From Thermoplasmatota archaeon (GTDB lineage: Archaea; Thermoplasmatota; E2; DHVEG-1): 40,638 nucleotides of DNA. A program made the position numbers and the translations under genes. The stretch covers positions 157,084 through 197,721 of the forward strand of contig JAOZSQ010000001.1 of assembly GCA_029939595.1 (NCBI GenBank). The letters are read 5' to 3'. Every line of letters begins with the position of its first letter. Position 1 is the stretch's first letter. Shown piece by piece: positions 3,843 to 36,383 of the stretch. The notes beneath the pieces were generated by a model that did not search any database, had not been told where the DNA came from, and saw only the letters and a list, made by a program, of their open reading frames with translations.

Positions 3843-4958
3843 CTATAGTCCTAAAAATGTTTTACAATTTGTGTCTGACATTGCTTTGAATGTATCAACT
3901 CCGAACCAAGCTTCCATTACAGCCCTTTGATAATTATTATCTTGAATGGTTTCATCAAATGCAGTTGTCATATACCAATCAGAACCAAATAAAACTTTAT
4001 CTTTTATTTTAGGATCGGTTAATAAATGATCTCTAACAAAAATATTGCCTTTGTGATTAAAATCATAACTAGTATCACCAAGATTACAAGATACATCCGT
4101 ATAACAATTTGGGTATTGACGAAGCATATCAATCAAAATTTTTGCCCAACAATCATCTTCTGCATCACCATCATCAGTTCTTTTACCACCTAAATAATCA
4201 CAAAAATCTCCTGCTATATGAGCCAAGTCAATACGAAGATTTGGGAATTTTTCAAGTACAGGCTTGAAATTCTTGAGATACATGGTATAAACACAAGCAG
4301 TCATATCTGTCGTCCATGACCAGGACCACCAAGAAGGACAATCGCCTTGATAATGTTTTTTTAAATTGCTATGTTCAGGAGTTTCCCAACCAAATACACC
4401 AGCCTTTGAACCATGTGTAATAACTGGTTTATTGATGGATTGTAAATATTCATAAGCAGGGAATAATCTTTCGTCATTGGGAAAATAACCCAATTTGGGG
4501 TATATTTTGGCACCATAAAAACCATATTCTTCTATAGCCATTTTTAATTCACTTAAAAGGTTGGGGTTTCTAGGTTCTAAAAAAGCAAAGGGTAATGCTT
4601 CATTGGGATATTTATCTTTTATTTCTTTCAATTCTTGATATTGACCTTTCATATCTTGTGCTGGAGATCCACCTCCAACAAATCTAAAATCCATAGGCAA
4701 TAAAACAAATTTAGTACCATCAGGATAACATGATTTTAATTGTTCAAATATCGTTATTTGTTTTTCTTGATTTCCAGTTGTAACGAATGCTGCCACTTTA
4801 TCAAGTGAATCATTATCATTAAAAGGATTCATGTTGCGGAGCATCCATAATGCTGTATCCTTAAAATTTGGATCTTTAAACCAACTTGTGTTAAATCCAG
4901 GAATATAGTTTTCAGGAATAGCATTTAGTGTAAAACAATGTGAATGTATATTATACAT
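3843..4958 (-). CDS. metal-dependent TIM-barrel hydrolase, amidohydrolase-2 (PF04909)-like
   Basis: It has an N-terminal HSHC (HxH) motif, ITHGS, DLAHIAGD and a C-terminal LFGSDW, matching the amidohydrolase-2 metal-ligand pattern (HxH ... H ... H ... D). It is preceded by TATAAATA at 5017-5010. Confidence 0.6.
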   Translation of the reverse strand: MYNIHSHCFTLNAIPENYIPGFNTSWFKDPNFKDTALWMLRNMNPFNDNDSLDKVAAFVTTGNQEKQITIFEQLKSCYPDGTKFVLLPMDFRFVGGGSPAQDMKGQYQELKEIKDKYPNEALPFAFLEPRNPNLLSELKMAIEEYGFYGAKIYPKLGYFPNDERLFPAYEYLQSINKPVITHGSKAGVFGWETPEHSNLKKHYQGDCPSWWSWSWTTDMTACVYTMYLKNFKPVLEKFPNLRIDLAHIAGDFCDYLGGKRTDDGDAEDDCWAKILIDMLRQYPNCYTDVSCNLGDTSYDFNHKGNIFVRDHLLTDPKIKDKVLFGSDWYMTTAFDETIQDNNYQRAVMEAWFGVDTFKAMSDTNCKTFLGL

Positions 4959-5009: not shown

Positions 5010-5017
5010 TATTTATA
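5010..5017 (-). promoter_or_regulatory. T4-type late promoter TATAAATA upstream of the amidohydrolase gene
   Basis: Forward tatttata gives TATAAATA on the minus strand, about 50 nt upstream of the ATG at 4958. The late sigma factor gp55 is encoded in this window. Confidence 0.4.
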
Positions 5018-5021
5018 TCAA

Positions 5022-7072
5022 TTAAACACCGAAACTTTTTAATTCGGTAGCAAGATCCTTCGCCCGTTGATCTAAACTATTAGCAGTTTCTAATATAGTA
5101 TCCATCCCCTCTGATACCTTTGTCATAGAAGACGCATTTTCCTCATTTCCTTGAGAAATATCATCGGTTGCTTGTTGAATTTCAGTTACTCCTATAGACT
5201 GCTCTTTCATTGATTTACTAACTTGAGATATGCCTTTGGTTATAATATCTACCATTTCAATTATCTGATGCATTGTCTCGCCAGTAGTTCTACTTATTTC
5301 GGTCCCTTGATAATATCATTAGAAGTTTCATCAATTAAACCTCTAATTTCTGTTACAGAAGTATTACTGCGTTCAGCTAAATTTCTTACTTCATCTGCCA
5401 CAACAGCAAATCCTTTACCAAAATCTCCTGCTTTGGCTGCTTCAATAGCTGCATTTAATGATAATAAATTGGTTTGATTGGCGATTTCAGTAATAACGCC
5501 AATAATCCCTTCAATTTTTTGGCTTCCTTCTCCAATCTTTTTCATTGCCTCTTCAGCGTTTATTTGATCTTCTTTACTAGAAGATGCTTTTTTATGAGCA
5601 TTTATTGCCGTTTTCTCAAGTTCTTCTGATTGTTTAGATGTATCGTTTATAGATTCAGCCATATTATCAACAGTCTTAGCAGTTTCTATAGAAGCAGCAG
5701 CACTACTTTCTATAGCTCCAGTAGCATGAGAAACAATTTCTTTTACTTCAGCTACTAATTCTTTCAATCTTCCAGAATATTCTTCCATTTTTGAAGCACT
5801 CAATCCAACCGATTCAGATAATCTTTGCAACATCTCTTTCACATTGTCTCTGGTATTAGCAAACCCCCTTGATATTTCACCTAATTCGCTACCCCAAGTT
5901 TTATAATGTTCTGGAACTCTTACATTGAAATCTTTCTTTCCTAATCCATCTATTGCTTGAGCGATTATTCTTATAGGTTTAGCAACTCTTCCACTTACAA
6001 AAAATATAGCGATTATACCGATTACAATTAATACAATTCCTGAAATTACTGCCATTCTTAAAACTGCATAGACATCTGCTAAAACTACTTCTTCGGATAC
6101 CATCATTCTAACCATCCAAGGATTAGGTTTACGAGATACATCAATAGAATCACCAAATTGTATAGGTACTACCACTTTTAAAAATCCATTTTCAAAAAAA
6201 GATATTGGTTTAGTTACTGCTTTAAATTTTTTAATATCTTCAACATCAGTTAATAATTTATTTACATTATCGGGTTTATCTTTATATCCCATTATAACAC
6301 CTTTATTACTCATAATAGTCATATGAGCATATCCTCTATAAGCATCTACATCATCAGCCATATGTTGAAGATAATCCAATTTTATATCTGTACCCGCCAA
6401 ACCATAAAACTTGTTTTTATAAATTATAGGTGCTATTGTACTTACTCCCACGATTTCTTTTCCTTGAACACTCCAAGGATAAGGTTCAGTTACAAATTGT
6501 CTTTTTGTTGTTCTTGGTGTTGTATACCAAGGCTTTGGGTTAGGATTATACTTCCAAGGTCTAATTCTATAACTACCCAATGTTCTAAATTTTATAGTAC
6601 CTTCTTCATTACGACTAAAATAAGGAACAAACCTACCTGTCTCATCCCACAAAGTATTTTTACATTTATTTGGTTTTCCATTTTTCAATGGACATTTATA
6701 CTTATTATCTTTTTTATCAAACGCATTTGGTTCCCAAGCAACAAAAAAACCTGTTAGAGTTTTCTCTTTTATCAAGACAGCTTTTATCATAGCCATTACT
6801 TTTTTCCTATCAAGTCCGACTTTATAATTGGTGCTAGGAATAACATACATTGTATCAGAAAATGCTTGTGATAAATCCAACGCCAAGTTTATTTCTTTTT
6901 TTACTTTTTCTGCTTCTGATGAAGCAAGTAATAACACTTTGCTTACAGCCAATTTTTTAGCTTCATCATACATTATATAACCAGAATATATGCTTAATAA
7001 AGCAACTGTTATTAATAAACATATTCCTGCTGAAAGTGCAATTTGAGTTTGTATTGATTTGAAAATATTCAT
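5022..7072 (-). CDS. methyl-accepting chemotaxis protein (TM, dCache_1-like sensor, TM, HAMP, MA signalling domain); reading frame broken near 5300
   Basis: The signalling-domain core [34 protein letters not shown] is present. The N-terminus has a TM helix followed by a double-Cache-like region and a second TM/HAMP segment. Track ORF 5294..7072 carries the sensor through the first half of the MA domain, and track ORF 5022..5273 carries the C-terminal MA half. The start at 7072 overlaps the upstream stop as ATGA. Confidence 0.8.
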
Positions 7073-7488
7073 GAGGTTCCTCTTTCTAGTTTTTTAATTT
7101 CTCTTGTCATCTGTTCTATTTCTTCTTTATAAAACTTTATTAGTATATCTCCTGTTTTTATATCCATCTGTTTCCAATCTTCCATGTTTAACATTGAAAC
7201 ATCTAATGAATACTCTTTTGACAGTTTTTCTTGTTTCTTTTTTAATTTTTTCTTCTCTTTTTCTAAATCTAAAGATTCCACTTCCCATTTTTTAGAAGAA
7301 ATGTTTTCATCTATCAAAACATTTGGGATATCTAAATTTTCAACACGAATTGATGCTACACCTTCATCTATTTTAAACCCAACGGTAAGGGTATCTCCTT
7401 TTTCTAAAATTATATATCTGTTCATTTCTCTCCGTATTTGTAAAAGTTCAGTCTCTAAAATACCATAGTTCTTTAGATATTTTATCAC
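7069..7488 (-). CDS. hypothetical protein translationally coupled to the MCP gene
   Basis: A 139-aa ORF. The track start is GTG. The first in-frame ATG is at about 7425 (M22), behind a GGAGAG SD. Its stop overlaps the MCP ATG. Confidence 0.5.
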
Positions 7489-7501: not shown

Positions 7502-7627
7502 TTAAAGATTTAATCTTCTTTCTCGTTCTTTCTTTTTTTTGAGTTCCAACTCTTTAAATCGCAACTCATCTTTCTCATTCCATTCTGGAACCATTTGCTC
7601 CCAAAAACCTGAACCTTTATCATACAT
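7502..7627 (-). CDS. small hypothetical basic protein (41 aa)
   Basis: An ATG lies 4 nt after the RNR stop, and the peptide is MYDKGSGFWEQMVPEWNEKDELRFKELELKKKKERERRLNL. It fills the RNR-to-7488 gap. Confidence 0.25.
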   Translation of the reverse strand: MYDKGSGFWEQMVPEWNEKDELRFKELELKKKKERERRLNL

Positions 7628-7631
7628 AATC

Positions 7632-10316
7632 TCAACATTTGCTATTGCCACAATCTTGACATAGAAAACATCCTTCACTTAAATGAATTTTACCCCCACA
7701 CTCAGGACATTTTATCTCGTCAAATTGGGTTCCATTTTTAATAAATTTCATTAGAAATTTTTTAAGGGTGAAAATAAAGGTTCCAACCGGCACTTCAAGT
7801 TGGTCCAAACATTGAACTATCTTACATAGTTTAACATTATGCCTTAACAATAACCCAACCGATCTGGCAATCTTATCAATGTTATTTTGACCTTTACATT
7901 TTTTAGCATTATCTTCAATATGTTTCTCAGATATGTTTCTTTCTCTGGCTAAACCTTCAAATGCTTCTATTGCCCCAAAAGTGGAAACATTCGGTTCTCT
8001 GGCATTTGTTTGAACAAATATAGCAAACGGTCTTTGTTGGGCTTTATCTTTAAACGCAACATTAAAATAAAATTTCTTACCTTCACTGCGAATTCTCCAT
8101 CCCTTCATGGGATACTCAAAAGGTAATGAAACATTTTCTGCAACTACATTACCGTTACTATGCTCATTCCAGGTATTATAAAAATTCTTTTGTTCTTTTT
8201 TTATTTCTTTGTTTTTAACTTGTTCTAAAATAGGTGTCATCGTACCTTCTCTATAAGTAGTAAATCCACGAACACCACTTCTCCAAGCATCTATAAACAT
8301 TCCACTAAATTCTTCTTTTGGATATTTGTTTGGCAAATTGATTGTTTTTGAACAAGAATTATCTATGTATTTTGAGAATATTTTAAAGGGTTTTAAATGT
8401 TCATCAACATTTAACTCCATTGCCGTTGCATATACAGAATCATTTTCTTTGACTTTATTGTTCTTCTTAGCCCACTTCCAACCATAGTCTTCACAAAGGG
8501 TTTTCTTTCTTAAAATACCCGCTTTAAAGAATCTATAATTACCACATTTAGATACTAGTATTTCTTCATCATTATATATTTCTTTTTTAAAATCTGGAGT
8601 TTCAAACCACTCGCCTTTGGTTACATCTGGATATTTCATTTTTTTCAATTCTGAATACATTTTATGTGTTACTTCTAACCATCTCCAGAATTCTCTATTA
8701 ATTCCAGGTTCTAAACCACCAGAAACAACACCTGCATAAACACCAGTATTACCAGTTGGACTAACAGTTAATAACTGGCTATTTCTTAAACCTTTTGTTT
8801 TGATTTGTTTTTTTGTATAATCAGTTAAACAACCATTTTTCAAATATCCATTTTCAAATATCTTATTTTTATCATACAAAAGAAAAGTTCCCTTCTCTTG
8901 AGCCAAATCAGCACTAACCCGATATGCAGTATTTACATACAATTCCATCAATTCTTCAGTGAATTTATTGGCTTCTAATGAACCATATTTTAAACCTTTC
9001 ATCATAAGTAAACTACCATAACCAAGAAAACCACAACCAATTTTTCTTCTCAATAACGCCGCATTTTTGATTTTTTCAAAAGGATAACCGGATATATCAA
9101 TAAGATTATCAAGAGATCGGACCAATAATTTGATATCATTTTCCATTAATTTCCAATCAAAATCGTTATCTTGGTGATATTGGGTTAAATTGATATAGCC
9201 CAAATTACAAATATCTCCAAGATGATCATATTTTTTGCCACCTATTGTTTCGGTTCCGCCATCACTTAACATTGTGATTTCACCACAGGGGTTAAGAGCA
9301 ACAATTCTCTGTTTATATAACAGGTTGTTATACTTATTAGCATTATCAATAAAAAACAATCCTGGTTCATTACGATTGTACATATTATCAATTATGAGTT
9401 CCCATATACTTTTGGCATTCATAACTTTATAGATTGTTCTTTTAGTTGGATATTTATCTTTCCATTTTTTAAAATCACCATCCCATTCGGTATCATACTC
9501 CTGACAATTAATATCTGGAAACCAAAATTCCCAATCATCATCATTTTCAACACATTCCATAAATTCGTCTGTAATGGATATTGTCATATTGAATTTAGTT
9601 AAATAATTAGGTATTTTCTTTGCTTCAATATAATTTATGATATCTGGATGATTGATGTTAAGAAGAGATATTTGAGCACCTTTTCTGGCTTTTTTCTTAA
9701 CATGATATTCATCTTCATGTTGAAAAATATCTTCGGTTGGGGTTGATGAAGTTATTATTTCAGATGATTTATCATACAACTCCATAAATTTAATCACTCC
9801 TGGAGTTGGAACACCTATCCCTTTAATAAAAGTTCCTCTTGGTCTTAAATGGCTAAAATCATAACCAATACCACCTTCAGTTTTTAATATATTGGCTCCA
9901 TTATAAAGGTCCGAATATATATTTTTTAAACTATCATATGGTTTTACACTTCGTTGAGCCGAATAACAATTAAACGAATTTACATTTTTAACATCAGTTC
10001 CAGTATTTGCTGTAACTCTTCCTCCCAGGACTATTCTTTTGTTGGTTAATGCCTCATAAAATTGTATTTTTAGTTGTTTACTTTCACTTTTATATATTGA
10101 TTCAACTAATCTTTTACATGTACCTTCAACTGTTTCACCATTAAATCTGTAATTTTCCTCCCATATTTCTTTTGAAAGATTATTTTCAAAAAACTTTATC
10201 TCACTTTTCTTTTCTTTTTTTTGTATTACAACTCTTCTTTTTTCACTTTTACTATTAAAAAACATAGCTGGAATGAACTTTCCTATTCCTGCTGTTGGCG
10301 CAACTTGACCATTCAT
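7632..10316 (-). CDS. ribonucleotide reductase catalytic subunit, probably class II (NrdJ-like) with a C-terminal Zn ribbon
   Basis: It carries GGIGYDFSHLRPRG...PGVIKFMELYD, the active-site LNPCGEI, and a C-terminal CPECGGKIHLSEGCFLCQDCGNSKC. No NrdB-like small subunit is in the window. It has an ATG start and an AAGGAG SD. Confidence 0.75.
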   Translation of the reverse strand: MNGQVAPTAGIGKFIPAMFFNSKSEKRRVVIQKKEKKSEIKFFENNLSKEIWEENYRFNGETVEGTCKRLVESIYKSESKQLKIQFYEALTNKRIVLGGRVTANTGTDVKNVNSFNCYSAQRSVKPYDSLKNIYSDLYNGANILKTEGGIGYDFSHLRPRGTFIKGIGVPTPGVIKFMELYDKSSEIITSSTPTEDIFQHEDEYHVKKKARKGAQISLLNINHPDIINYIEAKKIPNYLTKFNMTISITDEFMECVENDDDWEFWFPDINCQEYDTEWDGDFKKWKDKYPTKRTIYKVMNAKSIWELIIDNMYNRNEPGLFFIDNANKYNNLLYKQRIVALNPCGEITMLSDGGTETIGGKKYDHLGDICNLGYINLTQYHQDNDFDWKLMENDIKLLVRSLDNLIDISGYPFEKIKNAALLRRKIGCGFLGYGSLLMMKGLKYGSLEANKFTEELMELYVNTAYRVSADLAQEKGTFLLYDKNKIFENGYLKNGCLTDYTKKQIKTKGLRNSQLLTVSPTGNTGVYAGVVSGGLEPGINREFWRWLEVTHKMYSELKKMKYPDVTKGEWFETPDFKKEIYNDEEILVSKCGNYRFFKAGILRKKTLCEDYGWKWAKKNNKVKENDSVYATAMELNVDEHLKPFKIFSKYIDNSCSKTINLPNKYPKEEFSGMFIDAWRSGVRGFTTYREGTMTPILEQVKNKEIKKEQKNFYNTWNEHSNGNVVAENVSLPFEYPMKGWRIRSEGKKFYFNVAFKDKAQQRPFAIFVQTNAREPNVSTFGAIEAFEGLARERNISEKHIEDNAKKCKGQNNIDKIARSVGLLLRHNVKLCKIVQCLDQLEVPVGTFIFTLKKFLMKFIKNGTQFDEIKCPECGGKIHLSEGCFLCQDCGNSKC

Positions 10317-19754: not shown

Positions 19755-20407
19755 TTATTCGTTCTGACTCCAAACAATTGGTTGTTTGCCACTTTTGGCC
19801 AGATAATCATTTGTTTTGGAGAAATGTTTATTTCCAAAAAATTGACCCGCTCGTGCAACCGGATGCGCTCCCTTTAAAACAAGATGTTTATCATCATCAA
19901 TTAATGGAGCCTTCTCTTTAGCATTTCCACCCCATAATATGAAAACAACTCGGTTTCGGCGGTCACTTATTTTCTGTATTATCTCATCAGTTAATTTACC
20001 CCATCCAATATCTTTGTGAGAATTTGATTCTCCCTGTTCCACTGTTAATGTTGTGTTTAATAGTAAAACTCCTTGTTGTGCCCAACCTTCCAAATTGCCA
20101 CCTGAAAATTCCATATTCAAATCTTCTTTTAATTCTTTTTTAATATTTCTAAGTGATCGGGGAATGTTGTTCTCATCTTTGGGAATTGAGAAGGCAAGTC
20201 CATGTGCATGGAAGGGGTTGGGAAAAGGATCTTGAGCAAGTATAACTACCTTTACTTTATCAAAAGGTGTCATTTTAAGAGCCTTAACAACTTCATTTGG
20301 TTTTGGAAGAATCGGTTTTCCTGCATTTATTTCAGCAACAAGAAACTGTTGTATTTCTTTGAATTTTTCACTTTAAAAAACTCAATTTCGTTAAGCCACG
20401 TTTCCAT
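19755..20407 (-). CDS. ung: uracil-DNA glycosylase (family 1 UNG); the N-terminal ~45 codons are in a different frame (frameshift at the A5 run, forward 20364-20368)
   Basis: Track ORF 19755..20273 carries VKVVILAQDPFPNPFHAHGLAFSIP and GAHPVARAGQFFGNKHF, which are the UNG signature motifs. Upstream, METWLNEIEFFKVK is in frame 2 and KFKEIQQFLVAEINAGKPILPKPNEVVKAL is in frame 1, both matching the UNG N-terminus. One extra A would join them. Confidence 0.75.
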
Positions 20408-20972
20408 AAAATTTCCATTTTTTTAGGTTTTTGATTGATTCTAACGGTTTTAAATTATCAAGGGACCAACATTTTTTAAATTCAAGATCATTAGTATTTG
20501 TAAAAATAAAAGAAGAAATAGGTTTAATATGATCTATTTGCCATGTTTTTTGATTTTTATCATAATTACCATGATTGCTCCAATTCATCCAAGGTTTAAA
20601 TTGAGCCTCAAGATGTTCCTTTAATTCCTGTAAAGTATAACCAACTATATCTTCCCAATGTCCTCCTTTTCCTCGTCCCAATGATTTATTAATTGAATTA
20701 GAAAATTTAGTTTTTATTTTAAAATTAGAATCTTCTTTATATTTTTTCTTTCCCCATTTTCGTTTATTTTCTTTCCATGATTCTGTTTTTCTATATTCTG
20801 CTTTTTGAACGAGAATTTTTTTTCGTCTTTTATTATAACTTTCTTTTGAACTTGTTATTCTACAAATTTTACAATTAGATGACAAACCATCTTTATGTAA
20901 TTTATGTTTATGAAAATCATTCAAAAATTTTAATTTTTTACATGTAGTACATATTTTTCTATCAGTTACCAT
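20391..20972 (-). CDS. HNH endonuclease (likely free-standing homing endonuclease) with an N-terminal Zn finger
   Basis: CTTCKK ... CKICR at the N-terminus. The C-terminus has WQIDHIKPIS ... NLKPLESIKNLKK, an HNH His-Asn-Asn arrangement. Confidence 0.6.
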   Translation of the reverse strand: MVTDRKICTTCKKLKFLNDFHKHKLHKDGLSSNCKICRITSSKESYNKRRKKILVQKAEYRKTESWKENKRKWGKKKYKEDSNFKIKTKFSNSINKSLGRGKGGHWEDIVGYTLQELKEHLEAQFKPWMNWSNHGNYDKNQKTWQIDHIKPISSFIFTNTNDLEFKKCWSLDNLKPLESIKNLKKWKFYGNVA

Positions 20973-21288
20973 TTAAAATACTATCCAATCCTATTTTTAT
21001 CCCAAATTGTTTATTAACTAGTTTAATTAAAACATCACCATGACAAGGTAACGGATTATTTTTCTTTTTACAATAGCACCCAAGAGTCTTTCCGTATAAT
21101 TCATTGAGAGAACCCATTAAATGTGGTTGAGTTAATACCCATTTTTGATAACATTCAATGGATTCTTCTCTGGTTGATACTTTCCATTTGGCTGAAGAGT
21201 TTTTGAGATGACTAAATGGATTGCCCCATTTAGAACCTCGGCCAATATAGACATCATAAGTATCTTCTTTACAATGAACTACTTGCAT
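20962..21288 (-). CDS. DUF4326-like small protein
   Basis: YDVYIGRGSKWGNPF ... GKTLGCYC ... CHGDVL fits the conserved DUF4326 pattern as remembered. Confidence 0.45.
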   Translation of the reverse strand: MQVVHCKEDTYDVYIGRGSKWGNPFSHLKNSSAKWKVSTREESIECYQKWVLTQPHLMGSLNELYGKTLGCYCKKKNNPLPCHGDVLIKLVNKQFGIKIGLDSILNGN

Positions 21289-26606: not shown

Positions 26607-27053
26607 TCATCCGGCATCCGCCTCTCTATGAGTGATGGTATTATAGTCGTATTTTGATGAGTTGTTTAAAAGTTCTCCCGTTAGTTTGAATCGGAAGTTA
26701 GTGAAATGTTTTTCTTTCTTTAAATATTGTAAAAAACTATTATGTACGATGGTTGTAAAATAAGCAAAGGCGTTTTGTGATTTTAGAGGATTAAAATTAT
26801 GAGCATATTTAACACATGCTAATAATGCATCTCCTCTCATATCTTCAATATATGTGTATCCTGAAAAGTTTAATTTGTTTGAATATCTTGTTACAATTTT
26901 CAAAAAACAATCTGCAACAAAATGTGGTATCGTTTCGGACCCGTTTTTTATTAAATTTTCTTTCCATACTGATACTGCGCTTGTAAAATCGCTATTGTTA
27001 ATGTATAAATCATCCTGCTTAGTCAACCTCTTTCTTGGTTTGCGTTTTGTCAT
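26607..27053 (-). CDS. 55: late-transcription sigma factor (T4 gp55-like)
   Basis: NFSGYT and LYINNSDFTSAVSVWK match T4 gp55 RFNFSGYTQ and YVNNKELLQAIIDWK. Confidence 0.75.
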   Translation of the reverse strand: MTKRKPRKRLTKQDDLYINNSDFTSAVSVWKENLIKNGSETIPHFVADCFLKIVTRYSNKLNFSGYTYIEDMRGDALLACVKYAHNFNPLKSQNAFAYFTTIVHNSFLQYLKKEKHFTNFRFKLTGELLNNSSKYDYNTITHREADAG

Positions 27054-32977: not shown

Positions 32978-33421
32978 ATGAAAGATATTATGTTAAAACC
33001 TTTTGGTTCGTTTTTTAGTAGAAGTTCGTTTGATAAAACTCTTGATGATTTTTTTAACATTCCTTTGTTTCTTGAAAAGGAGACTTTTGGTAAAAATATT
33101 AAAGCTGATATAACTGAGACAAACAAATTTTTTATTTTTAAACTTGATGCTCCAGGGGTAAAGAATGATGATGTTAATGTTACTATTGAAAATAGTATTT
33201 TGAATATTAATCTTGAACGAAAAGATGAACATGAAGAAAAAACTTCTAAACGGCATTGTAAAGATGTTTATTATGGTTCATATAACAGACGTTGGGAACT
33301 TCCCAATAATATCAATGTTAAAGATGTTAAAGCTAAACTTGAAGATGGAGTTCTTAATATAACTATTCCAAAAAAAGATGTTGATGATATTGACAATAAA
33401 AGAAAAATTAAAATAGAATAA
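32978..33421 (+). CDS. small heat-shock protein (Hsp20 / alpha-crystallin family)
   Basis: An alpha-crystallin domain runs from DITETNKFFIFKLDAPGVKNDDVNV to GVLNITIPK. It has an ATG start and an AAGGAGG SD. Confidence 0.8.
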   Translation: MKDIMLKPFGSFFSRSSFDKTLDDFFNIPLFLEKETFGKNIKADITETNKFFIFKLDAPGVKNDDVNVTIENSILNINLERKDEHEEKTSKRHCKDVYYGSYNRRWELPNNINVKDVKAKLEDGVLNITIPKKDVDDIDNKRKIKIE

Positions 33422-34980: not shown

Positions 34981-35287
34981 TTGGGAAATGGTATCATTAT
35001 CAGTTGGTGATACTATACTTGGTTTAATTAAAGGGCGAAACGGCCATTTAAACAATGACGAAACCAAATCTTTGTTAAATGATTTTTATTTAACAAACGG
35101 ACACAGAACTTTCAAAATAGGTCAAAAAGTAAAAATACCTATTATCCCACTTTTACAACTTAACAAAACGAATGAAACTAATAAAACCGAACATCAGTCA
35201 ATTGTTTTTGACATCAGACGAAAAGAAGTATCTACAGATACCGTATACCCCCATCAAGTCTCTATTGGCAGATTACGAGTGGACTGA
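34968..35287 (+). CDS. hypothetical protein; may be the 5' part of a frameshifted gene that continues in 35172..35663
   Basis: An ATG at 34968 gives MKNNWEMVSLSVGDTILGLIKGRNGHL... It overlaps the next ORF by 116 nt, and the overlap contains a C5 run at 35249-35253. Confidence 0.3.
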
Positions 35288-35663
35288 ACAAAAGAAAAAC
35301 TCATTAATAAATTTTTCTCGTAATGTTGGACCTTGGAACGTAGAATTGCATCCATCGGGAGTTAAAATTGAATTGGATATGGGCAACTCAACAAAATATA
35401 TAGAAGAATTTGAAAAACCAATAAGGGTTTTTATATCTGAACTATATGTTTTTATTTCCAACTTTTACTGTCCTCTTGACAAACTTCAGAACCTTCTGTA
35501 CTATAAGAATTTAGAATCTGTTTTTTATGAAGAAGTGGCTTCCTTCCTTCAAGAACGAGAAAAGGTAATCATTATGAATAATGGAAGAAAGATAGAAGAT
35601 GAATTTTGTTATAGGTTAGGAGTTTTTTATCCTGAAGAACCTTTTAATAAAATACAAGTATAA
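35172..35663 (+). CDS. hypothetical protein
   Basis: A 163-aa ORF. See the overlap note for 34968..35287. Confidence 0.45.
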   Translation: MKLIKPNISQLFLTSDEKKYLQIPYTPIKSLLADYEWTEQKKNSLINFSRNVGPWNVELHPSGVKIELDMGNSTKYIEEFEKPIRVFISELYVFISNFYCPLDKLQNLLYYKNLESVFYEEVASFLQEREKVIIMNNGRKIEDEFCYRLGVFYPEEPFNKIQV

Positions 35664-35741: not shown

Positions 35742-36383
35742 ATGAAAAAAATAACTGTAAATTTGGTAGATTTATATGCACCAAAAGCTGTTCTCAATGC
35801 CGTTGCCAAACCTTATAAAAATGAAGAACCAACCATTGATCTTGTCAAAAAAATTGTTTTAGTAAAAAAACATAAAACAATATCAGAACATATTGTAATG
35901 ACATGGGAGATATTGGGGAGTTCCCGATTGGAACTTCAAGAACATATGCGACACCGCATGGCAAGTCCCACTGTTGAATCAACCCGATTCTCACTCAAAA
36001 AGATTATAAAATCTTTGGAAGAGAATACAGATCCTTCTCACTATTTCACACATCCTTTATTATCGCTTCCTGATTTTGATTATCTATCAGATAAAGATAA
36101 GCAATTATTTGAGGATATGTTTCAAAAACACATTCAATATAATGTGGATCTGATGAAAAGGTTACAAGATACTCCATTTAAGAATGATTTAATGAAGTAT
36201 TTCTTGCCTGAATGTCTTCGTACAAATCTCACCTGGACGATTAATTTAAGCAGTTTATATAATTTCTTTAATTTGAGATTGGATAAATATGCTCATTTTG
36301 AAATTCGTTTCATAGCAAATATGATGTTGGGTTTATTGCAAGATACGTGGGTTGAACCTTTATTACAGGATTATATGAAATGA
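35742..36383 (+). CDS. thyX: flavin-dependent thymidylate synthase ThyX
   Basis: RHRMASPTVESTRF is the ThyX signature RHRxxSxxxxSxR. Coordinates are taken from the ORF track. Confidence 0.8.
   Translation: MKKITVNLVDLYAPKAVLNAVAKPYKNEEPTIDLVKKIVLVKKHKTISEHIVMTWEILGSSRLELQEHMRHRMASPTVESTRFSLKKIIKSLEENTDPSHYFTHPLLSLPDFDYLSDKDKQLFEDMFQKHIQYNVDLMKRLQDTPFKNDLMKYFLPECLRTNLTWTINLSSLYNFFNLRLDKYAHFEIRFIANMMLGLLQDTWVEPLLQDYMK

Follow-up and report, generated by a model that had tools for sequence, protein, structure and literature searches.

Phage-borne methyl-accepting chemotaxis proteins (MCPs) are known from annotations and from two metagenomic notes, and none of them has been characterised. On prophage scaffolds of Desulfovibrio vulgaris, three MCPs, of which two have double-Cache sensors, have been described as viral auxiliary genes and were suggested to assist the host in substrate sensing; the same paper mentions a single previous study of MCPs among viral auxiliary genes (PMC9448743). 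A 2026 preprint describes CheR, CheY, and MCP in Nitrosospira phages. The present analysis concerns an MCP gene on the minus strand (7072..5022) of a 40,638-nt stretch of DNA, hereafter called the window, from contig JAOZSQ010000001.1 (positions 157,084 to 197,721 of the forward strand; assembly GCA_029939595.1, filed under Thermoplasmatota archaeon). The gene encodes a first transmembrane helix (TM1), a dCache sensor, a second transmembrane helix (TM2), a HAMP domain, and an MCP signalling domain. With moderate confidence, sequence and structural comparisons suggest that it is a bona fide auxiliary ("moron"-type) gene of a T4-like jumbo phage and encodes a class I chemoreceptor; the intact product would join the receptor arrays of the host, and motility would become cued by an amine. 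As assembled, the gene is interrupted by a frameshift. The Desulfovibrio prophages are temperate with a known host, and their MCPs are most naturally taken to benefit the lysogen; whereas the carrier of the window MCP is T4-like and presumably strictly lytic.

Chemoreceptor genes in other phages

The GenBank phage genomes were searched by tblastn. Most matches were contaminated or host-containing records, and three cases were clean. The cultured Escherichia phage A4 (Asteriusvirus, 355 kb, ON286972) carries an intact 470-aa protein annotated as an MCP (A4_379) among phage open reading frames (ORFs); no other GenBank phage record contains this protein. The gene lies at ON286972.1 51130-52542 (L088:4185-5597), and its product has a multi-TM N-terminal module. 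The A4 MCP matches MCPsignal with E=4e-37, and its bundle can be aligned gaplessly with residues 274-517 of E. coli Tsr, which belongs to the 36H class of the host itself. The A4 and window MCPs are both found in jumbo phages, both have a Tsr-like bundle, and both lack a C-terminal pentapeptide. However, the A4 sensor is multi-TM and not dCache, and the signalling domains share only ~35% identity. A4 also belongs to a different phage family, has a known host, and does not carry its MCP in a replication module.

The cultured Vibrio jumbo phages vB_VmeM-Yong XC31, XC32, and MS31 (290 kb) encode an intact 610-aa "hypothetical" protein (QAX96201), which consists of dCache_1, HAMP, and MCPsignal (E=1.3e-39). 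Its domain architecture is identical to that of the window MCP, and its host is motile. It differs in being intact, in sharing 27% identity with the window MCP, and in lying outside a T4-like replication context. In XC31, the gene is located at MK308674.1 207397-209229 (L089:1687-3519); its annotation is a gap to be filled, and these phages offer a tractable model for phage-encoded chemoreceptors.

A profile scan of IMG/VR identified at least 271 MCP-bearing contigs, many with the MCP at a provirus edge. One 161-kb contig (L080) carries a 4HB-MCP gene 5 kb from a 954-aa tail-sheath gene. None of the IMG/VR MCP loci shares T4-like genes with the window. Two candidates were set aside. The IMG/VR locus L009 looks like host or prophage-edge DNA; the Microcystis phage MaAM05, with a protoglobin-coupled MCP beside cheB, rpmA (L27), ruvA, ispD, and thiL, was not used as a precedent. 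The MaAM05 locus (L087, MW495066.1 14641-25375) is either bacterial DNA in a "complete phage" record or part of a very unusual phage.

No paper on MCPs combined with jumbo phages was found in the literature, and chemotaxis is unmentioned in the major jumbo-phage comparative papers (PMC7824862, PMC9123017, PMC7162821). Together with the "hypothetical" label of the Yong MCP, this silence marks an annotation gap. In a preliminary description of the window, a phage-encoded chemoreceptor was considered not to be a described function in T4-like phages. This has to be narrowed: phage-borne MCPs are on record in A4, Yong, and prophages, while no description was found of an MCP in a T4-like replication module specifically. 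Likewise, the comparison with phage genomes recommended there gave no close relatives with the MCP, and gave the more distant phage MCPs of A4 and vB_VmeM-Yong.

Architecture of the chemoreceptor and its candidate ligand

Domain searches and alignments were run on the joined 683-aa protein, in which one G was added at the frameshift. All features of the gene are on the minus strand. TM1 (residues 7-35, 6968..7054) was assigned by hydropathy and falls in a helix of the AlphaFold2 model (residues 7-75). The periplasmic ligand-binding domain is of the dCache_1 type (double PDC; residues ~36-334, 6071..6967), as found by Pfam, AlphaFold2, Foldseek, and phmmer. TM2 (residues 335-365, 5978..6070) was again assigned by hydropathy. 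The HAMP domain (residues 358-412, 5837..6001; Pfam E=2e-4) aligns to the HAMP of the 3zx6 chimera. The MCP signalling domain found by Pfam (residues 488-641, 5151..5611) spans the frameshift, with the hairpin tip at about 5375-5464. Two TM helices around a periplasmic sensor, followed by HAMP, constitute a class I (transmembrane) topology.

The Pfam MCPsignal profile (PF00015) was matched with E=5e-39 and 134.3 bits (cutoff 34.6), over profile positions 3-170 of 172. The sensor scored above the cutoff of MCP-like_PDC_1 (E=5e-12, 46.6 bits, cutoff 27) and below that of dCache_1 (4e-6, 26.9 bits, cutoff 45). HAMP was found at the expected position with 22 bits, just under its cutoff of 25. The order of TM, double-Cache, TM, HAMP, and MA domains given in the preliminary description was thus borne out by Pfam and hydropathy, and the conserved MA signalling core quoted there is present in the sequence. 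The profile search it proposed also agrees, with dCache_1 and HAMP as sub-cutoff matches. Of the span it assigned to the gene (5022-7488), the MCP occupies only the part within 5022-7072; the remainder is an upstream ORF (orf139).

An AlphaFold2 model of residues 1-345 was built from a 50-sequence alignment (pLDDT 91.7, pTM 0.88). The sensor is bordered by a long N-terminal helix and a C-terminal helix in this model, and shows the dCache_1 double PDC fold with a long N-terminal stalk helix. Foldseek against the PDB identified dCache_1 ligand-binding domains (E 1e-19 to 5e-25), and more than 40 of the top matches were dCache. The best matches included PctD (7prq), MkcA (9heh), TlpQ (6fu4), PacA (7psg), a M. 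mazei histidine kinase (3lib), and McpU (6f9g). The same PDB chains were found by sequence using phmmer, with E down to 1e-24. Four of these receptors have amine ligands: choline/acetylcholine for PctD, histamine for TlpQ, betaine for PacA, and putrescine for McpU.

The phage MCP was compared with an amine group of dCache receptors, including P. aeruginosa PctD (7PRQ) and TlpQ (6FU4), P. atrosepticum PacA (7PSG), P. putida McpU (6F9G), and D. solani MkcA (9HEH). These proteins share the topology of TM, dCache_1, TM, HAMP, and MCP signalling domain with the phage MCP. Their sensor folds are similar to the phage model (target-normalised TM-score 0.81-0.83), although the sensor identity is only 19-25%. 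The phage MCP has an extra Cys-containing loop. It is also a frameshifted gene of a lytic-type T4-like phage, whereas the comparators are bacterial.

According to Cerna-Vargas et al. 2023 (PMC10589655), the AM_motif of the dCache_1AM domains comprises R103, D133, W155, F188, Y206, M215, S217, and D235 of PctD. These positions were mapped through the phmmer alignment to 7PRQ, each being compared with the residue of PctD itself. R103 corresponds to R89 of the phage MCP, D133 to D119, W155 to Y, F188 to W, Y206 to W, M215 to G, S217 to S, and D235 to D229. Four positions (R, D, S, and D) are therefore identical, and the three aromatic positions are kept aromatic. The pocket appears to be largely of the amine type, with one mismatch, and a small amine would be the best guess for the ligand.

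The hairpin tip of the signalling domain is nearly identical to that of Tsr in the alignment, which makes coupling to CheA/CheW plausible. After repair of the frame, the cytoplasmic domain can be aligned to E. coli Tsr (36H; 1QU7, 6S1K) over 217 positions without gaps, and the aligned stretch runs across the frameshift (MCP 451-667, Tsr 292-508). The arm between the HAMP end and the tip has 138 residues, and the arm running on to the C-terminus has 133, corresponding to ~19.7 and 19 heptads. The alignment to the TM1143 chemoreceptor (2CH7), which we take to be of the 44H class, needed gaps (254 query versus 263 target residues), and this argues against 44H. The 36H class is linked to F7-type flagellar systems; it is a heptad class of the Alexander & Zhulin scheme. 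The arm lengths, which fit ~38 heptads, and the gapless fit to the 36H Tsr suggest that the predicted bundle is of the 36H/38H type rather than 44H. As a guide to the host array, which the preliminary description had hoped for, the alignments argue against 44H and leave 36H beside 38H. In the sole case with a known host, A4 and E. coli, the receptor class matches the host array (both 36H), which suggests that the class might be a host-prediction marker.

The adaptation features of Tsr are not conserved. None of its five methylation sites is a Glx pair in the phage MCP, where the aligned residues are E-S, I-E, D-N, T-K, and L-E; one near-consensus methylation site is located at residue 644 of the joined protein. 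The MCP ends at a position equivalent to Tsr 524, without the C-terminal linker or an NWETF-type pentapeptide. Since the Tsr methylation sites and the pentapeptide that tethers CheR/CheB are both missing, the receptor may signal without adapting.

The frameshift and the phage residency of the gene

The gene was initially described as complete, with a joined translation that hid the frameshift. As assembled, it consists of a 592-aa ORF and a 98-codon frame at -1. The first frame (5294..7072, minus strand) starts with ATG and ends in DIIKGPK at a premature TAA (5296-5294); the MCP frame breaks after residue 590. This ORF holds TM1, dCache, TM2, HAMP, the N-terminal arm of the bundle, the tip, and the first 40 residues of the C-terminal arm. 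The second frame (5022..5315, minus strand) has 98 open codons, which complete the C-terminal helix of the signalling domain and end in ELKSFGV; its internal ATG at 5273 would yield 83 aa. The only place where the shift can occur is ~20 nt around atcaaGGGaccgaaaTAA. At the GGG run in atcaaGGGaccg (5304..5306, minus strand), one extra G restores the continuous 683-aa MCP. The two arms of the antiparallel four-helix bundle are not encoded in one uninterrupted frame. Because the 592-aa product misses most of the C-terminal helix, it could not form the four-helix bundle.

The chance of 98 stop-free codons in ~30%-GC DNA was estimated by us to be ~3e-4. The gapless fit to Tsr, the profile match through the site, and these open codons together indicate a lesion that is either single and recent or an artefact, and the joined reading is the ancestral frame. 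The split stems from an indel error in a homopolymer or from a mutation that inactivated the gene very recently, and this copy of the MCP may be a pseudogene. An exact 38-mer adjoining the frameshift was absent from the genome, viral, and JGI metagenome collections, which gave no second allele. Stop-codon recoding was rejected, since the break is a frame change and not an in-frame stop, and the core genes read normally in table 11.

The window is unmistakably a T4-like (Straboviridae-type) replication and recombination module; this assignment is based on core genes, and the structural genes lie outside the window. The core set includes gp32, the class-II-like ribonucleotide reductase (RNR) large subunit, the gp61 primase, the gp41 helicase, RNase H, UvsX, UvsY, UvsW, gp46/47, a gp55-like sigma factor, gp45, gp44, and gp62. 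The carrier is a deeply novel T4-like jumbo phage of ~427 kb. The best match of gp41 among the GenBank phages has 37.7% identity and comes from cyanomyoviruses; a megablast of 25 kb against the same phages gave no match, and single-protein scans of IMG/VR with the MCP and with the RNR gave no close relatives.

The T4-like core genes border the MCP gene on both sides. The RNR large subunit gene (7632..10316, minus strand; 894 aa; Pfam Ribonuc_red_lgC 8.5e-95) is the phage gene directly upstream of the cluster. A small 41-aa ORF (7502..7627, minus strand) starts with the ATG at 7627, 4 nt (GATT) past the RNR stop TGA (7634-7632). The GTG start of orf139 (7069..7488, minus strand; GTG at 7488), an orphan K/E-rich ORF of 139 aa, lies 13 nt beyond the end of the 41-aa ORF. 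The TGA stop of orf139 overlaps the MCP ATG as ATGA, and AAAGAGGAA, a good Shine-Dalgarno (SD) sequence, is located 5 nt upstream of this ATG. The translational coupling through the ATGA overlap, and the path from the RNR over the 4-nt gap and the small ORF to the upstream ORF, had both been noted before and were confirmed in these coordinates. No Pfam or PHROG family was found for orf139, which forms a singleton cluster from the same 427-kb contig. The 41-aa ORF contains an A8 run (ctcAAAAAAAAgaaag, 7527-7545, minus strand); it is very rich in K/E/R, like orf139, and neither has a detectable family.

The composition of the MCP gene is within the range of the core genes. The GC content at third codon positions (GC3) is 0.162 (core genes 0.139-0.271), and the synonymous-codon log-likelihood is -0.836 (core genes -0.78 to -0.95). 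No repeats, mobile-element genes, or structured RNAs were found flanking the gene. The earlier statement that local composition and SD usage match the rest of the window agrees with these values. Its argument against host contamination or a chimera is also supported by the ameliorated composition, the ATGA coupling to an orphan ORF, and the lack of a close homologue.

Homologues of the full-length MCP were searched among 5.8 billion proteins, and the sole match above 30% identity was the MCP itself. The next matches have 27% and 24% identity by BLASTP (30% and 27% in the MAFFT alignment). The closest one (P0002) adjoins a solute-binding protein gene (SBP_bac_8/SBP_bac_6), which is uninformative on the ligand type. 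An exhaustive HMMER search with the sensor alone among 1.8 billion proteins identified ~2,900 homologues, the best with 35-38% identity. The nearest MCPs come from "MAG: bacterium", Elusimicrobia, and Omnitrophota entries. The sensor family is also found in Chloroflexota, Desulfobacterota, Planctomycetota, Acidobacteriota, Bacteroidota, Vibrio, and Leptospirales, with at most 33% identity to the phage copy, and this wide spread allows no donor or host to be named.

The closest RNRs (50-56% identity) are encoded on T4-like metagenomic contigs, such as L002, which also carries UvsW, and L006, which carries a B-family DNA polymerase, a clamp-loader homologue, and a RegA-like (Translat_reg) protein. 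In three related phage lineages (contigs L002-L007), the search for an MCP within 10 kb of the RNR was negative. The lack of a close homologue and the RNR-related phages without MCP indicate that the gene is an old, lineage-specific acquisition, and its composition is fully ameliorated. Two other features of these contigs were observed: the orthologous RNR of L006 (10001-13285; 1094 aa) contains an intein carrying an HNH endonuclease, and L002 (4245-5459) has a TnpB/Cas12f1-like gene beside a resolvase and N6/N4 methyltransferases.

Proposed role and the surrounding module

The MCP gene is host-type and non-core, is patchy among related phages, and has a phage-like composition, which are the features of an auxiliary or moron gene. 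MCP genes are also sporadic in other jumbo phages. An intact MCP would be made early or in mid-infection together with the replication genes, and would be inserted into the host inner membrane. It might join the host CheA/CheW receptor arrays through the conserved hairpin tip. A small molecule sensed in the periplasm would then govern how the infected cell swims; amines such as choline, betaine, a polyamine, or a methylamine are the most plausible candidates. It is unlikely, in our estimate, that a receptor wired in this manner to CheA/CheW also steers the infected cell towards, or holds it in, amine-rich, host-dense sites before lysis, as a viral manipulation of bacterial navigation, with the frameshift as an artefact, a minority variant, or a phase-like variant. 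The suggestion in the preliminary description that the phage manipulates host chemotaxis or motility was overstated. If phage-encoded chemoreceptors are functional, large lytic phages would reprogram where the infected cell swims, besides its metabolism, with consequences for encounter rates, the dispersal of phages, and ecology at the microscale. The locus studied here has limited value, since it carries a frameshift, lacks orthologues, and has a function predicted from sequence.

Several observations weigh against an amine-cued auxiliary receptor. The 592-aa product lacks 93 of the ~133 residues of the C-terminal helix. The identical product is on record from both NCBI and Logan (426,929-bp contig). 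Moreover, frameshifts are absent from the core genes recognised in the window (~16 kb), and a random sequencing error at this site is therefore not the default expectation. No other che genes were found within the window, and the reading presumes a motile host. Sigma-70-like promoters and terminators in the window are at or below the shuffle expectation. The MCP has no relatives from which selection (dN/dS) could be gauged. The M215 to G replacement in the AM_motif also counts here, since single mismatches abolished binding in the published controls (PMC10589655).

The first three of these points are shared with the view that the MCP, taken up from a host long ago, has since decayed into a non-functional pseudogene with a real frameshift. 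This view is possible but less probable, and for this copy it overlaps with the auxiliary-gene reading. The frameshift after codon 590 with its premature TAA, the truncated product in two sources, and the intact core genes, which make the assembly look accurate, are consistent with decay; so is the lack of conservation of the MCP in the RNR-related phages. The GC3 and codon score of the C-terminal fragment are slightly atypical, but the fragment has only 98 codons. The lesion is single, however, and the downstream frame has stayed open for these codons in AT-rich DNA and matches the profile and Tsr without gaps. Full amelioration and the tight operon coupling imply long maintenance under selection before any loss. 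A programmed -1 ribosomal frameshift or transcriptional slippage, which would produce a truncated and a full-length receptor, was rejected as extremely improbable. The needed shift is exactly -1 and lies no more than 20 nt from the stop, and re-pairing of tRNA-Gly from GGA to GGG is conceivable; but there is no X_XXY_YYZ slippery heptamer, and polymerase slippage would need a run much longer than 3 nt. Downstream, neither a stem-loop nor a pseudoknot was found, and the 131-nt region does not fold better than shuffled sequences (minimum free energy -15.8 kcal/mol, z=0.53; 143 of 200 shuffles fold as well). We know of no precedent for frameshifting in MCPs.

Two further explanations concern the source of the DNA and the output of the receptor. 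The 5.0-7.5 kb segment might be bacterial DNA misjoined into the phage contig, given that MCPs are overwhelmingly bacterial and that many MCP matches in IMG/VR and GenBank "phage" records are provirus edges or contaminated records. Such contamination or chimeric assembly is very unlikely here. The GC, GC3, and codon usage of the segment are indistinguishable from those of the adjoining T4-like genes; the same-strand packing is unbroken from the RNR to the amidohydrolase gene, including the overlap with an orphan phage ORF; all bacterial homologues have at most 38% identity; and the flanks are free of repeats and mobile-element genes. Alternatively, the full-length or the 592-aa form might jam the array by locking the CheA output whether or not ligand is bound, which would switch motility on or off, for instance to conserve energy or to prevent dispersal during infection. 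The highly conserved CheA/CheW-contact tip, which is kept in the 592-aa form, the unconserved Tsr methylation sites, and the missing NWETF-type tail would suit a jammer, and the MCP of phage A4 likewise stops at the end of the bundle. A large, well-folded, and well-conserved dCache sensor with most of its pocket residues kept would be superfluous in such a protein, and we consider this function doubtful. An amine-cued auxiliary receptor of the phage is still preferred.

Downstream of the MCP, a 63-nt spacer separates its stop codon from the start of an Amidohydrolase_2-family gene (3843..4958, minus strand; 371 aa; Pfam 7.4e-13). No PHROG family was found for this gene, and tblastn was negative in the RNR-related contigs L002-L007. 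Possibly, the phage acquired it as a second auxiliary gene, together with the MCP or close to it. The spacer contains TATAAATA (5010..5017, minus strand), a T4 late-promoter consensus. The MCP transcription unit may end here, which is only suggestive, as the count of TATAAATA in the window equals the chance expectation.

The window also encodes ThyX, a UDG-family protein, and Hsp20; no tRNAs were found in it, and the Rfam search gave no match. The Thy1 (ThyX) match (E=1.7e-31) covers only profile positions 35-187, and an unassigned 163-aa ORF is located 78 nt upstream in the same frame (35172-35663 and 35742-36383, plus strand). These two may represent a split or N-terminally divergent thyX, or the ORF may be an unrelated neighbour. 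The small heat-shock protein Hsp20 (E=3.6e-22; 32978-33421, plus strand) lies within the T4-like module, and Hsp20 is typical of cyanomyovirus-like T4 relatives. The gp55-like late sigma factor (Sigma70_r2) is encoded at 26607-27053, the UDG-superfamily protein at 19755-20273, and a DUF4326 protein at 20962-21288, all on the minus strand. Gene orientation and GC/AT skew switch sign at ~27.3 kb, and a minus-strand island with UvsW and UvsY extends over 30.1-32.7 kb. The switches of orientation and skew at about 27300, 30150, and 32700 are module boundaries within the replication region.

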